Below, one piece after another: positions 11,010 to 31,496 of a stretch of DNA of 64,000 nt (within the stretch, counting starts at the first letter, position 1; each line of letters opens with the position of its first letter). A program made the translations under genes and the position numbers. Source of the stretch: a virus (lineage: Duplodnaviria; Heunggongvirae; Uroviricota; Caudoviricetes); IMG/VR virus record IMGVR_UViG_3300042923_000692, positions 26,709 through 90,708 of that record; one strand, 5' to 3'. The notes beneath the pieces are model-generated. The model did no database searches and had not been told where the DNA came from. It saw only the letters and a list, made by a program, of their open reading frames with translations.

Positions 11010-11430
11010 TTGTCCCCTTTCAAGAGATACCCATAATTGTGACCACAAAAAGATAGGGTATGGGGGCCGCGCCGATAGCCGACGAGACCCCCATATAATC
11101 AGGCGCCCGAGAATGATCCCGGGAACAGTTCCAGCTGTCTGTGACTTCGCCACCTCTGGAAAGGCGCTTATTGGTAACATAGTTACCTGCATATATACCT
11201 GATAGCGCGGTTTTAACTAACTCATCCACAGGGGGGCCTAACCCCCATAAACTTTCGGTGCGGCGCCACACCGCTCACGTACCGGCTGCTGCATGATACA
11301 ACCTGCCATTACCCCAAGTATCACAGGGGCACCGATACCGCACTGGACCTAAGAGCTATTTAAACTCGTCCAGTCGAGTTCCCACATACCGAAGATCTGG
11401 GAGTAGGTCAAACCTTCGGGCTGAAGGATA

Positions 11431-25565: not shown

Positions 25566-27170
25566 CTATCGAACGAAGTTGGCGATCAGAGCCGGTGCGT
25601 TCGAGTCGAACCCTGCGATATCCAGGGCATTGAGATCGGACGGATCCGCCATCGAGAACTTGTTCGCAGTCACCGCGTTAACGATGATCTTCGCGTTCAC
25701 TCCCGAGACATGACGGTATCGCTCGAGCGCCTGGAACGGGTGGTGGTAACCCAGACCGTTCTCGTTGTCCGTGAAGAGAACGAAGGCGTCGACCTTCATG
25801 TCCTTCTGCAGAGCATCCATCATCGGGAGGGAGAGGTTTGTGCCCCGGAAGGGGAACGCGCCAGTCTCAGTCATCACAGTCTCGAGGGAATCCCGAGCGG
25901 TGATGTTGAGGAACTCCATCCGATCCTGGAAAGCACCGAAGTAGTGCTCACGCTCCGTTCGAGCCACCACCATCGCCATAACCGCGGCGATCTCACGAGG
26001 TGACAGCGGAACCTTGTCGGAAATCCGAGAAGGACCATCCATCGACTGTGAAACATCGATGCCGAGGTAGTGCGCCTTGCCGGTGGGCTCGACCGCAGCG
26101 AAGGAACCGTAGAACGATCCCTCGAGCGCTGCAACGATCCGACCAACGGGAGACCACTGGCTACGCTCGCCATATCCCTGACCGTAAGTACGCATCGCGA
26201 TGAGCGCATTGACGGGGTGGATACGAGCCTTACGAAGCTCGTCCGAGTCGGTGAGTCGATCCTCGATTCGTCCGGTCCAACCACCGAGTTGCGTGATCAG
26301 CCCCAGGTTGGTAAGACGAGGAAGCTGGCGGATGAGCGCCCCAAGAGGCACGTTTCCCTCGAGAAGGGCCTCCCACACGGGGACATCGTTCAACACTTCG
26401 GTCGGAAGCATCTCCCACGAGAGACCATACTCGCGGATGATACGAGGAATATCCCGAGCGTCAGCGGTCTTGGCGATCTCGAAGCCCTGAACGACACGAG
26501 GAAGTTCCTCGATCGCGACAGACTTACCAAGCGCCCAGTCCAGAAGCGGACCAGAGGAGGGACGGTCGCTCGACTTGACGTACTTCGACAGACGAAGCGT
26601 ACGAGAGTGATCGAACCCACCGCGCTGACGGTACTTGACCATCTGGTAGGCAAGCTTGTCGACCGGCTTCTCGTTGTACCAGCGTCCGATCGCCTTCTTG
26701 AGACCCGTTCCGCCCAGGTTCTTGAACTGGGACAGATATCCGAGGAACTCGAAAAGGGTCGAAGCCGTCCGAGCGACTGCCTGGATCGCCTGGAATCCGA
26801 GGTTCTTCACCTTCGGGTCTTCCGTCGAGGCGATCACCAGAGCCAGAGCGAACAGACCAGGAGACTGGCTCGGCGCCCGGCCAGAAACTGAAACCTCTGT
26901 GATGAGGTCGATCAGCTCGATAGCCCGGTCGGACTCGGCGAGCTTCTTGATCGTCTCGGCGTTCTTCATGGCGAGCTTGCCGCCGGCCTGGTAGAACGAG
27001 GACTCCGATCCGAGGATCAGGAATCGCTCGGCACGCTTCATGTCATCGATCTTGAAGACGTATCCGCCCTGGTGGCTCTTGACCTGGTCGGGGGTGGCGC
27101 GGACTGTCGCGGGGGTCGTGTTTCGGTGTGCTGCGTGTCCAAATGACACACCGCGGAGTGAGTTGGGCAT
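25566..27170 (-). CDS. rsr: Ro60 orthologue (Rsr): TROVE domain + C-terminal vWA
   Basis: 534 aa; TROVE-like N-terminal region; MIDAS-type GIDVSQSMDG in the C-terminal vWA; GAAGGAG SD. Confidence 0.75.
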   Translation of the reverse strand: MPNSLRGVSFGHAAHRNTTPATVRATPDQVKSHQGGYVFKIDDMKRAERFLILGSESSFYQAGGKLAMKNAETIKKLAESDRAIELIDLITEVSVSGRAPSQSPGLFALALVIASTEDPKVKNLGFQAIQAVARTASTLFEFLGYLSQFKNLGGTGLKKAIGRWYNEKPVDKLAYQMVKYRQRGGFDHSRTLRLSKYVKSSDRPSSGPLLDWALGKSVAIEELPRVVQGFEIAKTADARDIPRIIREYGLSWEMLPTEVLNDVPVWEALLEGNVPLGALIRQLPRLTNLGLITQLGGWTGRIEDRLTDSDELRKARIHPVNALIAMRTYGQGYGERSQWSPVGRIVAALEGSFYGSFAAVEPTGKAHYLGIDVSQSMDGPSRISDKVPLSPREIAAVMAMVVARTEREHYFGAFQDRMEFLNITARDSLETVMTETGAFPFRGTNLSLPMMDALQKDMKVDAFVLFTDNENGLGYHHPFQALERYRHVSGVNAKIIVNAVTANKFSMADPSDLNALDIAGFDSNAPALIANFVR

Positions 27171-27223
27171 CGGTTTTCTCCTTCGGATCTCTGGGTAGAG
27201 ACGGGTAGCGAGTAGACAGGGGT

Positions 27224-27291
27224 ACGACGGTGCGGGTTTATCCCCAAGCGGGGATATCTTAAGATGGAAGATGACGCATTGTCTTGGATCT
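27224..27291 (-). ncRNA. Y-RNA-like module 8 (hairpin type), directly upstream of rsr
   Basis: bounded by AGATCCAAG and CTGTCT; contains ATCCCC-GCTT-GGGGAT tetraloop hairpin. Confidence 0.4.
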
Positions 27292-27336
27292 ACTCGGGTT
27301 TGGACATCTAGACAGGTTTGTGATATTCGACTTTTT

Positions 27337-27426
27337 AGACAGTTGCTCTGCCGATTGAGCTACACGTCATAGAGACGCGACGGGACTTGAACCCGTAACA
27401 CACGGATAACCGAATATCTTGGATCT
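27337..27426 (-). ncRNA. Y-RNA-like module 7 with permuted tRNA-like domain (YrlA-like)
   Basis: order T-arm ACGGG-TTCAAGT-CCCGT, acceptor 3' strand CGCGTC, loop TCTAT, acceptor 5' strand GACGTG, D-arm GCTC-AATCGGCA-GAGC. Confidence 0.5.
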
Positions 27427-27443
27427 AGATGGACTTGGGATTC

Positions 27444-27561
27444 AGACAGGGAATTGATGATCGATAAGCGTGTTGCCGATTACACTACGAAGCTAATGCT
27501 TCGGTGGGATTCGAACCCACAATACTCTTTCCGCATAAGATAACCGATCAAACTTGGATCT
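27444..27561 (-). ncRNA. Y-RNA-like module 6 with permuted tRNA-like domain
   Basis: T-arm GTGGG-TTCGAAT-CCCAC, then CGAAGC-ATTA-GCTTCG acceptor hairpin, then D-arm GTGT-AATCGGCA-ACAC. Confidence 0.5.
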
Positions 27562-27590
27562 GAATCGTGCTGGAACTACAGTTAAACCCC

Positions 27591-27643
27591 AGACAGGTTT
27601 GCGCGAAAGCGTTATTTTACAGATGACGCTAACGCTTGGATCT
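27591..27643 (-). ncRNA. Y-RNA-like module 5 (hairpin type)
   Basis: AGATCCAAG...CTGTCT boundaries; loop with TCATCT. Confidence 0.35.
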
Positions 27644-27669
27644 GGGATGGTTAAATGGATTAAAGGTTT

Positions 27670-27829
27670 AGACAGGAGTATGAGCATCGAATTTGTTGAG
27701 GTGTGACTACCGGGCACAAGGCAACCGGTCGCTTTAGGCCGCTCAGCCACGAGGGAATCTTAATAAGATACCTCGACGGGATTTGAACCCGCGGTCGCAT
27801 GATTCTAGATAACGATGACTCTTGGATCT
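27670..27829 (-). ncRNA. Y-RNA-like module 4 with permuted type-II-like tRNA domain
   Basis: T-arm CGGG-TTCAAAT-CCCG, acceptor strands CGAGGTA / TCCCTCG closed by a TTATTAA loop, Ser/Leu-like D region GCT-GAGCGGCCTAAA-AGC plus ACCGG...CCGGT arm. Confidence 0.45.
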
Positions 27830-27847
27830 AAACCAAGATTAAAACTC

Positions 27848-27907
27848 AGACAGGGGAATGCAAATGAGGTAATTTTCTCCCTAAGATAACCCTCGTAGCT
27901 TGGATCT
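27848..27907 (-). ncRNA. Y-RNA-like module 3 (hairpin type)
   Basis: boundary motifs; GAGG...CCTC stem with GTTATCT loop. Confidence 0.35.
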
Positions 27908-27926
27908 GAGTTGGATAAGCGGGTTC

Positions 27927-27985
27927 AGACAGGGATTCATGTTAGAGGATTGTCTGCAAGATAGATAACTCTAACACTTGGATCT
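27927..27985 (-). ncRNA. Y-RNA-like module 2 (hairpin type)
   Basis: boundary motifs; TGTTAGAG/CTCTAACA 8-bp stem, loop begins TTATCT. Confidence 0.35.
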
Positions 27986-28004
27986 GAACCGTAAAATAGG
28001 ACGA

Positions 28005-28130
28005 TAGACAGGGTGGTTGACGATTGGGTATAAGCGCTCTGCCGACTGAGCTACACGATGCACGCACCATGACGGGACTCGAACCCGCGACCTCTCCATT
28101 AACAGTGGGTAACCAATCATCTTTGGATCT
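28005..28130 (-). ncRNA. Y-RNA-like module 1 with permuted tRNA-like domain
   Basis: AGATCCAAAG start; T-arm GCGGG-TTCGAGT-CCCGT; acceptor strands ATGGTGC / GCATCGT; D-arm AGCTC-AGTCGGC-AGAGC; 9-bp terminal helix CCAATCGTC/GATGATTGG. Confidence 0.45.
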
Positions 28131-28139
28131 ATCGTTTCG

Positions 28140-28212
28140 CTCCTACACCAGGACTCGAACCTGGAACCAACGCATTAACAGTGCGACGCTCTGCCAATTG
28201 AGCTATGTAGGA
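28140..28212 (-). tRNA. tRNA-Asn (anticodon GTT), canonical order
   Basis: cloverleaf: acceptor TCCTACA/TGTAGGA, D-arm GCTC-AATTGGCA-GAGC, anticodon loop CTGTTAA, T-arm CCAGG-TTCGAGT-CCTGG. Confidence 0.7.
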
Positions 28213-28385
28213 ACGTGGAATGAGCGTCGGGAGCCGACCCCGATATGCGTGCTGCCTTCCATCCCCCGAGGTCCCAAGCTCGGGGGATGGCTGCACAAAA
28301 CTACTCTCACGCGAGGAATGACGTGGAGTTTCCGCCGGTACTCATTCAACGGAGGCTAAAGCCTCGTCCCCCCGAGAGGGAGCTT

Positions 28386-30855: not shown

Positions 30856-30887
30856 CGGTTACTCCCATTTTGATTGAATTGACGCAG

Positions 30888-30956
30888 TACTTACGACGGG
30901 ATTCGAACCCGCATCCTAAGCCAGAGGCTCAGCTCTACCAGTTAAGTTACGTAAGT
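30888..30956 (-). tRNA. tRNA (canonical order; anticodon uncertain, possibly TCT/Arg)
   Basis: acceptor ACTTACG/CGTAAGT, T-arm GCGGG-TTCGAAT-CCCGT; D and anticodon arms irregular. Confidence 0.45.
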
Positions 30957-31262
30957 TACCCCGGAGGGATTGTGTGATTGTACTCCGGATACCCGCTCAG
31001 ACCCATTCGAGGCTCATCTAGAATCGCCGATACGAGGATCAACATGACGTCTACGACTCCCAGGAGTGACCACTGAGCTATTAGCTCGGGTATTTCCCAT
31101 GGTATCGACCAAATCATCATCGTTGTCTTGCGGGTTTTGTTTCTTCTTGGATTGACACCCCATGAAGAGTGCGCACCCAGGGACTTGAACCCTGGATCTC
31201 AGAGGTTAGCTTCACGCTACAATCAGGGATTGTTTGAATGCGTGGAACATGAGACGCCGCCG
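30957..31262 (-). ncRNA. tRNA-like / structured RNA region (second cluster)
   Basis: T-arm CCAGGG-TTCAAGT-CCCTGG at 31177-31195 with palindromic GGTGCGCAC; CCGGAG...CTCCGG hairpin; GAGCTA-A-TAGCTCAGTGG junction; GATCC-type motifs related to the Y-RNA array. Confidence 0.3.
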
Positions 31263-31280
31263 CCCCGTGCGCCGGTTCAC

Positions 31281-31496
31281 TTAGGAACCGTTGGTTCGAA
31301 GGCGAAGGCCCTCGGTGATGCCACGTCCGGCGCCGATGGCGCTGTTGGCGGCGATGACGGTGACCTGAACGGCGAGTGCCACGACGGTCACGCCGGCGCC
31401 GACCACGAGCGAGTTCGTGCCGGCCTTCTTGAGCTCATCGATGAGTGCCTTGCGGGCATTCGTTGCGGCGGCTCGTGCAGCTGCTGTTTCAGCCAT
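31281..31496 (-). CDS. small membrane protein
   Basis: 71 aa; Ala-rich TM. Confidence 0.45.
   Translation of the reverse strand: MAETAAARAAATNARKALIDELKKAGTNSLVVGAGVTVVALAVQVTVIAANSAIGAGRGITEGLRLRTNGS

Follow-up and report, generated by a model that had tools for sequence, protein, structure and literature searches.

The minus strand of a 64,000-nucleotide (nt) stretch of viral DNA (IMGVR_UViG_3300042923_000692, positions 26,709 to 90,708; hereafter the window, whose positions are used throughout) very probably carries, at 28135..27209, eight tandem Y RNA genes in an operon-like arrangement with rsr, the gene for a Ro60 orthologue, in an actinobacterial phage, and four of the eight RNAs have a tRNA-like head. 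The array is an unusually large and clean example of Y RNA genes. It belongs to a known RNA class, that of YrlA-type and short Y RNAs beside a phage Ro60 gene, rather than to a new kind of RNA, and this assignment is well supported.

Architecture of the array

The array reads as eight head-to-tail modules, M1 to M8, separated by spacers of 7-19 nt (Table 1). Every module comprises an outer stem of 5 base pairs (bp), a conserved bulged helix (AGAUCCAAG with CCUGUCU, in outline AGA(U)CC.../...CUGUCU), an inner helix, a YUAYC motif and a variable head; it starts with (N5)AGAUCCAAG, has the YUAYC element 8-9 nt further on and ends with CCUGUCU(N5'). All eight CCTGTCTR sites of the 64-kb window interleave with eight GATCCAAR sites, all in 27213..28129, and the combined 5' pattern occurs seven times in the window against 0.16 expected, six of these inside the array. 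The outer 5-nt strands are complementary in all eight modules, each with a different sequence, where simple arithmetic puts the chance of such a stem at about (6/16)^5 per unit. A YUAY element is present as UUAUC or UUACC in M1-M4, M6 and M7, with UCAUC in its place in M5 and M8. All eight units thus have the general design of a Y RNA, in which the ends pair into a stem with a bulged helix and enclose a variable internal domain, and by analogy with known Y RNAs this helix is of the kind recognised by Ro60.

The heads fall into two types. Those of M1, M4, M6 and M7 contain, in this order, a T-arm, an acceptor hairpin closed by a loop and a D-arm, with the hairpin abutting the T-arm without a spacer and two nt preceding the D-arm. 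The heads of M2, M3, M5 and M8 are short hairpins without a tRNA-like domain (YrlB-like). An initial annotation of this stretch had described four such minus-strand repeats with T-arm, closed acceptor and D-arm, one of them of type-II (Ser/Leu-like) design, and all of these elements were located in M1, M4, M6 and M7, the class-II D-arm being that of M4. It had also suggested checking whether a tRNA caller is silent here while searches for the arm motifs succeed: the T-arm motif GGGTTCRARTCCC occurs seven times in the window (once with a mismatch) against 0.32 expected, with four of the seven in the array, while neither ARAGORN nor the Rfam tRNA model RF00005 calls a tRNA in 27209..28135. The count of four repeats holds for the tRNA-like modules but not for the array, whose short units M2, M3, M5 and M8 had been missed. 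Likewise, the four sites stand with revised limits (Table 1), and the last proposed range, 27337..27426, had cut short the 3' end of M7. The M1 acceptor is self-complementary, as proposed, but forms 7 bp around a 4-nt loop instead of a 2-nt loop, and that of M4 is a closed hairpin but a bipartite one (5 + 5 bp) instead of one simple helix with a mismatch. The Ro60/Rsr gene immediately downstream had been absent from that annotation.

The array is flanked by a canonical tRNA-Asn(GUU), which ends 3-4 nt before M1 and probably shares one precursor transcript with it, and by rsr, which lies on the same strand and starts 39 nt downstream of the last module. The rsr product matches Ro60 structures in the Protein Data Bank (PDB; 9nen, 5.5e-89; 1yvp, 1.1e-88) and Deinococcus radiodurans Rsr (2nvo, 5.1e-77), and presumably serves all eight RNAs as their protein partner. 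On the minus strand between tRNA-Asn and rsr, a scan with a crude sigma-70 consensus, which may not suit the host, returned no terminator-like or promoter-like site, a weak negative. About 45 nt upstream of the tRNA lies a strong, GC-rich hairpin without a U-tract (28255..28286, minus strand; CCAUCCCCCGAG-CUUGGGAC-CUCGGGGGAUGG).

Folding and covariation of the modules

To evaluate the fold comparatively, we used Rsr loci fetched from IMG/VR, metagenomes and deposited phages, whose Rsr proteins are at most 59% identical to that of the window; loci are cited below by their labels (L001 and so on). An alignment of 14 tRNA-like modules from nine loci was submitted to RNAalifold without an input structure, and the fold returned consists of the inner helix, T-arm, closed acceptor stem (AS) and D-arm, with compensatory changes in 20 of 24 pairs; all seven AS pairs covary. 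In this alignment 94.6% of cells are paired, compared with 35-46% when the partners are slid by 1-3 columns, and none of 500 shuffles reaches the observed values. The covariance model built from the alignment (R1) recovers all four tRNA-like modules of the window at full length. Its 21 non-seed full-length matches come from 13 loci and have unrelated AS sequences, yet pairing reaches 93.8% in the AS helix, 100% in T and 97.6% in D. The Levitt pair 15:48, which lies outside the R1 model, is kept in 32 of 39 modules, either as G15:C48 or as A15:U48, a value reached in 0 of 10000 permutations. The initial annotation had named beforehand a lack of conservation of acceptor complementarity in homologous phages as the finding that would count against its YrlA claim; since the complementarity is conserved while the sequence is free, the outcome favours that claim.

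The enclosing stems behave in the same way. In the 14 motif-defined units of the window and of L132, its closest metagenomic relative, 98.4% of terminal-stem cells are paired as against 15-38% when slid, and the five covarying pairs of nine are the five outer ones. Unconstrained folding of single sequences returned the terminal stem, inner helix, T, AS and D elements of M1, M6 and M7, all helices forming in the minimum free energy (MFE) structures of M1 and M6, and the fold of M4 with its T-arm forced (-48.7 kcal/mol) lies close to the MFE (-49.3 kcal/mol). For the short units, the inner helix of M2 is UGUUAGAG/CUCUAACA, and the M2 orthologue at L132 2372-2439 keeps the loop UUAUCUAUCUUGCAGA while its helix covaries; M3, given its weak inner helix, may be a degenerate unit.

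Table 1. Features of the Y RNA array and its flanks. Parts of modules are listed below the module to which they belong; R1 and Rfam YrlA (RF02553) scores are in bits, and z refers to the MFE. Where one strand of the outer stem is given, it is the 5' strand.
Feature	Position	Strand	Outer stem	R1	Rfam YrlA	z	Description
tRNA-Asn(GUU)	28139..28212	-					Canonical; ARAGORN; Rfam tRNA 67.8 bits
M1	28001..28135	-	ACGAU/AUCGU	113.7	34.5	-1.05	YrlA-type Y RNA
M1 inner helix	28121..28113 with 28027..28019	-					
M1 V hairpin	28108..28096	-					Loop CUGUUAA
M1 T-arm	28088..28072	-					GCGGG-UUCGAGU-CCCGU
M1 acceptor hairpin	28071..28054	-					CAUGGUG-CGUG-CAUCGUG
M1 D-arm	28051..28036	-					
M2	27922..27990	-	GGUUC/GAACC			-3.74	Short Y RNA without tRNA-like head
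M3	27843..27912	-	AACUC/GAGUU			-0.59	Short Y RNA
M4	27665..27834	-	GGUUU	37.8			Long class-II-style tRNA-like Y RNA
M4 T-arm	27792..27776	-					GCGGG-UUCAAAU-CCCGU
M4 acceptor hairpin	27775..27750	-					CGAGG-U-AUCUU-AUU-AAGAU-UC-CCUCG
M4 D-arm	27747..27731	-					Ser/Leu-type
M4 extra arm	27729..27709	-					At anticodon position; 5 bp, 11-nt loop
M5	27586..27648	-	AUCCC/GGGGU			-4.12	Short Y RNA
M6	27439..27566	-	GAUUC	99.0	31.7	-3.06	YrlA-type Y RNA
M6 V hairpin	27540..27526	-					Loop AUGCGGA
M6 T-arm	27520..27504	-					GUGGG-UUCGAAU-CCCAC
M6 acceptor hairpin	27503..27488	-					Closed, 6 bp
M6 D-arm	27485..27470	-					
M7	27305..27431	-	CAUCU	85.8	45.4	-4.82	YrlA-type Y RNA without V hairpin; Rfam match over full-length model
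M7 T-arm	27396..27380	-					ACGGG-UUCAAGU-CCCGU
M7 acceptor hairpin	27379..27363	-					Closed, 6 bp
M7 D-arm	27360..27345	-					
M8	27209..27296	-	CGAGU/ACUCG			-4.07	Short Y RNA, two internal hairpins
rsr leader hairpin	27178..27205	-					CCCGUCUCU-ACCC-AGAGAUCCGAAGGAG; upstream of rsr ATG at 27170
rsr	25566..27170	-					Ro60 orthologue, 534 aa; Pfam vWA_Ro60 3.5e-50, TROVE 3.6e-30; phrog_850 1.5e-63

The pairing partners of the acceptor strands are central to whether these modules are RNAs of their own or remnants of tRNA genes. The strands pair within their own module at 6-7 of 7 positions and in canonical order with the downstream module at only 3-5 of 7, in agreement with the failure of canonical-order pairing stated in the initial annotation, whose other refuting condition, a consistent canonical cloverleaf, thereby fails as well. 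If the units were tandem or decayed canonical tRNA genes, the T/acceptor/D order would be that of a tRNA-tRNA junction (a 'dimeric tRNA' artefact), and the locus does lie in a tRNA-rich neighbourhood, related modules have been called tRNAs by pipelines, YrlA models can, as Chen et al. (2014; PMC4201824) caution, give scores to dimeric tRNAs, and R1 itself gives partial matches (model positions ~42-107) at real tRNA-tRNA junctions in L001. The R1 matches of the window, however, are all full-length, the self-pairing, which spans a loop of 3-5 nt, covaries across 35 modules, the tRNA callers find nothing in the array, and each unit sits inside its own covarying terminal stem with Ro-type motifs. 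The covarying acceptor pairing within modules and the enclosing stems refute the artefact in practice, and we consider its probability to be close to negligible. Readings as a CRISPR-like array, as integron attC sites or as flanks of self-cleaving ribozymes were dropped on inspection of the repeat structure alone, because the repeats are the two strands of the helix that encloses each unit.

Relationship to YrlA and other Y RNAs

YrlA RNAs, as defined by Chen et al. (2014; PMC4201824), have T and D stem-loops with a closed 'acceptor' stem, AS, whose sequence is free, between them; their genes, found in 254 bacteria and 22 phages, lie on the strand of Ro60 and no more than 4 kb from it. These RNAs are bound by Rsr in vivo and are modified by TruB/DusA; a crystal structure is available (Wang et al. 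2018; PDB 6CU1). Here, too, the genes share their strand with a Ro60/Rsr orthologue that is within ~4 kb, the T-AS-D order with an AS of free sequence is found in M1, M4, M6 and M7, and the Levitt pair is kept as G:C in M1 and M4 and as A:U in M6 and M7. The Rfam YrlA model (RF02553), with which the initial annotation had suggested a comparison, is the sole non-tRNA family that matches the modules (M7, M1 and M6); the Rfam Y_RNA model gave no match at E<=10. The topology that had been proposed, a permuted tRNA-like domain with a loop-closed acceptor, is therefore borne out by the RF02553 matches, the adjacent rsr, the RNAalifold fold and the 15:48 covariation, and the terminal helix does replace the anticodon stem in M1, M6 and M7, where the Y stem occupies that place.

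The YrlA RNAs of Salmonella Typhimurium and Mycobacterium smegmatis share with these modules the order of elements (Ro-binding stem, YUAY, the V segment where present, T-arm, closed AS, D-arm and return strand), the adjacency and strand of rsr, the covarying Levitt pair and an acceptor stem of 6-7 bp. They differ in the 5' motif, GNCGAAN0-1G as opposed to GAUCCAAG in the present array, and in number, two units as opposed to eight. Furthermore, the Ro-type helix of this array is conserved on both of its strands, whereas Chen et al. (PMC4201824) discern the 5' strand alone in the Salmonella and M. smegmatis RNAs, and no rtcBA genes were identified among the scanned neighbouring ORFs of the window. 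The short modules M2, M3, M5 and M8 resemble YrlB/Yrn2 and the Yrl1/Yrl2 RNAs of Thermus phage phiLo in their stem-bulge-stem design, Ro-type motif and position upstream of Ro60; they lack sequence similarity to these RNAs, and the CGAA core used for finding the phiLo Yrls is CCAA here.

Several points weigh against the interpretation of the array as Y RNA genes. None of the Rfam YrlA scores attains the gathering score of 69. We attribute this shortfall to bias of the model rather than to a lack of membership, because RF02553 also gives other loci only 36.1-39.3 bits, namely Bixzunavirus Phox, which is of the phage type accepted as YrlA-bearing by Chen et al., Magritte, prophiGD43A-5 and L132. 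The 5' motif of the modules, GAUCCAAG (GAUCCAAAG in M1), departs from GNCGAAN0-1G, the consensus published for bacteria, and is closer to the vertebrate GGUCCGA; it pairs with the conserved 3' strand, and the sequence at its position grades through the relatives, from AGGCCCAAG in L132 and AGGCUGAAG in Magritte to AGGCCGAAG (= GNCGAAG) in L001. M1 and M3 are thermodynamically indistinguishable from shuffles. The promoter and terminator scan used a crude sigma-70 consensus that is possibly not that of the host. While the direct evidence comprises the modular fold, its conservation and the linkage to rsr, every step beyond folding is drawn for these RNAs by analogy with D. radiodurans, Salmonella, M. 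smegmatis and phiLo.

More distant RNAs offer partial parallels. In human Y1 a GUUAUC element follows the helix, as in the modules here. In the permuted tRNA genes of Cyanidioschyzon merolae and in two-piece tmRNA the 3' half precedes the 5' half, as it does here, and both mature to open, chargeable acceptor ends, the Cyanidioschyzon type through a circular intermediate to a tRNA with an anticodon arm; the present acceptor is closed and the open ends form the protein-binding stem. Vertebrate Y RNAs also form a terminal stem with a conserved bulged helix from both ends, and GAUCC(A)A here resembles their Ro60 site, GGUCCGA with a bulged helix (Stein et al. 2005, as cited in PMC4201824), although their loops are pyrimidine-rich in contrast to the tRNA-like heads and polycistronic organisation of the array.

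The rsr leader

The rsr leader hairpin is composed of the 3'-strand and 5'-strand motifs of the Y stem with the loop at the basal end and is thus a ninth, inverted copy of the Ro-type helix. Its copy of the 5' motif reads GAUCCGAAGG, and the rsr Shine-Dalgarno sequence lies inside or just after this motif. L132, L001, L002, L004, L006, Magritte, L011, L138 and L149 show this layout too, at 18-27 nt from the start codon; altogether the hairpin recurs in about ten divergent loci, each with its own motif variant. Because the inverted helix overlaps the Shine-Dalgarno sequence, recurs, and tracks the motif variant of each locus, the sequence comparison suggests that Rsr may autoregulate its own translation.

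The leader also bears on whether the RNAs are released at all. The unprocessed array could serve as a cis-acting structured 5' leader of the rsr mRNA, such as a multi-site Rsr sponge that sets translation; the lack of a terminator or promoter signal between array and rsr in our scan, the inverted helix over the Shine-Dalgarno sequence and the derivation of YrlA and YrlB in M. smegmatis from a single precursor that has Rsr downstream (Chen et al. 2014, PMC4201824) are all in line with this. Every studied system, on the other hand, accumulates discrete Rsr-bound Y RNAs, and the closed terminal stems of the individual units with their 7-19-nt spacers are laid out like a processed polycistron, as in a tRNA array. 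We regard a purely cis-acting array as decidedly unlikely; cis regulation and processing are compatible with each other.

A class-II-style variant

M4 has a counterpart in the last L132 unit (2791-2959), and both combine a class-II (Ser/Leu-type) D-arm and a long acceptor hairpin with an extra arm 3' of the D-arm. The covarying T-arm and the D-arm are common to both, while the extra arm occupies the same place with a wholly different stem (ACCGG/CCGGU in one, AGUUUCC/GGGGACU in the other). A search of the fetched loci for further modules with a class-II D-arm yielded only this L132 module (L132_f), and the M4 extra arm accordingly has the support of two sequences. A conserved UGCGAC...GUCACA in both could close a five-way junction, in which case the Y stem would exit at the variable-arm position rather than replace the anticodon stem.

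The same L132 unit has an outer stem, CGAGU/ACUCG, identical to that of M8, and the heads of the two are unrelated, short hairpins in M8 and a class-II tRNA-like head in L132. This hints at exchange of heads within a fixed stem, or at loss or gain of units at the rsr-proximal end.

Related arrays in other phages

Arrays are the rule in the Rsr-encoding phages examined, and the eight units with four tRNA-like heads described here stand at the top of these loci without being an outlier. Phage members of the YrlA class were already described in 2014, and prophiGD43A-5 is another locus with four tRNA-like units. There are six units each in L132 and Magritte, about seven by eye in L007, four in L006 and three in Bixzunavirus Phox. 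A strict stem-and-motif scanner undercounts arrays with mismatched stems (e.g. L001 and L007), and a relaxed '5'-half' regular expression has a background of 1-7 matches on the reverse strand, too high for counting units; the L001, L007 and Magritte counts were therefore obtained by direct reading. At L132, whose Rsr is 59% identical to that of the window, tRNA-Asn is followed by ~400 nt of other sequence and then by six units, including the counterparts of M2 and M4.

Closer copies were sought by sequence. An IMG/VR scan with the exact motif AGATCCAAG-N7-10-TTATC gave only single matches at chance level and the full short-module pattern gave none, so we find no close copy of the array in IMG/VR. 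Megablast of the region against deposited phages returned only an M1-like element of two M. abscessus prophages. Our full-text literature search found no paper that describes phage arrays with more than two Y RNAs, and the searchable literature has at most two per phage or bacterial locus.

The same modular array and rsr leader hairpin are present in Microbacterium phage Magritte (OR553905), M. abscessus prophage prophiGD43A-5 (MW584167) and L132 (Ga0157372_10029648), which differ from the window in Rsr sequence (44-59% identity) and in their motif variants (AGGCUGAAG, AGGCCCAAG); in none of these records is a unit described as a Y RNA. The YrlA-like RNAs of mycobacteriophage ET08 and other Bixzunavirus (among the 22 phages of PMC4201824) are also phage-encoded, lie upstream of a Ro-like gene and have the same fold, and Phox has one tRNA-like unit (R1, 104 bits) with two short ones. 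These phages differ in having three units as opposed to eight with four tRNA-like heads, in an Rsr that is ~39% identical, and in host lineage, the structural genes of the window being nearest to those of Microbacterium phage Count. Two deposited tRNA genes overlap YrlA-type modules: tRNA-Arg(tct) at L008 3437-3513 (Magritte gene 117; R1, 94.5 bits) and tRNA-Thr(tgt) at L155 3035-3113 (prophiGD43A-5 gene 51; R1, 95.6 bits). Both are without a match to RF00005, match the Rfam YrlA model and are probably mis-annotated.

Proposed function and the V hairpin

By analogy with the studied systems, the array, the upstream tRNA-Asn and rsr would be transcribed into a single precursor, from which cuts at the base of each outer stem would release the units. 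Through its conserved bulged helix every RNA would then bind the outer surface of the Rsr ring, and the head may gate the ring or tether a partner such as host PNPase or tRNA-recognising enzymes. The precedent for PNPase would be the RYPER complexes of D. radiodurans, Salmonella and Thermus phage phiLo, and a phage Ro60 binds two upstream Y-like RNAs together with host PNPase (PMC12135203). With such varied heads, a single protein would gain several specificities. RNase P cleaves YrlA when the AS has 7 bp, stems of 6 bp being poor substrates, and M. smegmatis YrlA is both cut by RNase P and given CCA in vivo (Chen et al. 2014, PMC4201824); M1, with its 7-bp stem, is a candidate RNase P substrate of the same kind.

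The segment between YUAYC and the T-arm (V) often forms a hairpin of 3-5 bp whose 7-nt loop, like an anticodon loop, has U as its second and a purine as its sixth nucleotide, and this hairpin is followed by a 4-5-nt 'variable loop'. Such regions are found in M1 and M6 and also in L002, L004, L006-L010, L132, L137, L145, L152 and L155; an anticodon-like loop is present in 16 of 36 modules, compared with 5.8 +/- 2.2 in shuffles. The V loop of M1 is identical to the anticodon loop of the adjacent tRNA-Asn, with GUU found again in at least five loci. Folding isolated V segments with RNAfold gave results too noisy to be of use, and ARAGORN, which called 26 of 37 de-permuted modules as tRNAs, was too permissive, calling 17-23 of 37 when the V segment was shuffled.

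These hairpins invite the interpretation that the modules are permuted tRNA genes whose products become functional, chargeable tRNAs, the acceptor loop being opened by RNase P and 3' trimming before CCA addition, with V as the anticodon arm. The processing of M. smegmatis YrlA, the 7-bp stem of M1, the excess of anticodon-like loops, the M1 loop shared with tRNA-Asn and the 26 ARAGORN calls all point in this direction, but the calls on shuffled-V constructs leave the last test barely discriminating. M7 moreover has no V hairpin, the 6-bp stems of M6 and M7 would be poor RNase P substrates, and, once cleaved, the two halves would have nothing but a 20-bp Y stem, inserted at position 26/27, to hold them together, an arrangement incompatible with decoding on the ribosome. 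Chen et al. (PMC4201824) judged general aminoacylation unlikely, and a tRNA function leaves the conserved Ro-type stem and the adjacent rsr unexplained. Chargeable tRNAs are in our judgement highly improbable products of this array, which we continue to read as Y RNA genes.

A broader proposal can be made for these Y RNAs, which taken as a whole we consider unlikely. Actinobacterial phages with Rsr would carry expandable libraries of up to eight Y RNAs, whose tRNA-like heads, with V hairpins that reproduce the anticodon stem-loops of actual tRNAs (Asn GUU, Arg GCG, Ala UGC, Ile GAU and others), would act as decoys or sensors of tRNA on one Ro60 scaffold. The decoys might soak up or redirect host defence nucleases that target tRNAs, or recruit repair or degradation machinery to damaged tRNAs. 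In the same proposal Rsr would autoregulate its translation through the inverted mimic of the Y stem over its ribosome-binding site, and units of the M4 type would stem from a second, separate permutation, that of a class-II tRNA with its opening at the variable arm instead of the anticodon stem.

Other features of the window

Three further RNA-like features were noted outside the array. Pistol self-cleaving ribozyme matches occur at 11312..11379 on the minus strand of the window (42.7 bits) and at 1377-1440 on the plus strand of L132 (39.5 bits), against a gathering score of 34.5. An orphan T-arm, CCAGGGUUCAAGUCCCUGG, with its T-loop at 31180..31192, lies in 31150..31285 (minus strand) just after a 71-aa ORF; this segment has a possible enclosing stem, GGCGCAC/GUGCGC, folds no better than shuffles (z = -1.34), received no tRNA, tmRNA or YrlA call and is without Y-stem motifs. 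The tRNA-Arg(UCU) at 30887..30956 (minus strand) is only 70 nt long and in the Rfam alignment has an odd anticodon arm, with either a 5-bp stem and a 3-nt loop, UCU, or a 3-bp stem and the loop CCUCUGG, in which C replaces U at position 33.

Implications

The analysis adds an eight-unit Y RNA operon beside Ro60 to a phage lineage without such annotation and confirms that a structured-RNA family can be recovered by reading nucleotides alone; it overturns nothing in current understanding. Because the units are unannotated or deposited as tRNAs, tRNA counts and codon-usage arguments for these phages are slightly wrong. The Rfam YrlA model misses phage members at its threshold, and it would be possible to re-seed it with them. 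The arrays constitute a natural 'head-swap' series on one Ro-binding stem and as such provide material for probing the role of the tRNA-like domain of bacterial Y RNAs.

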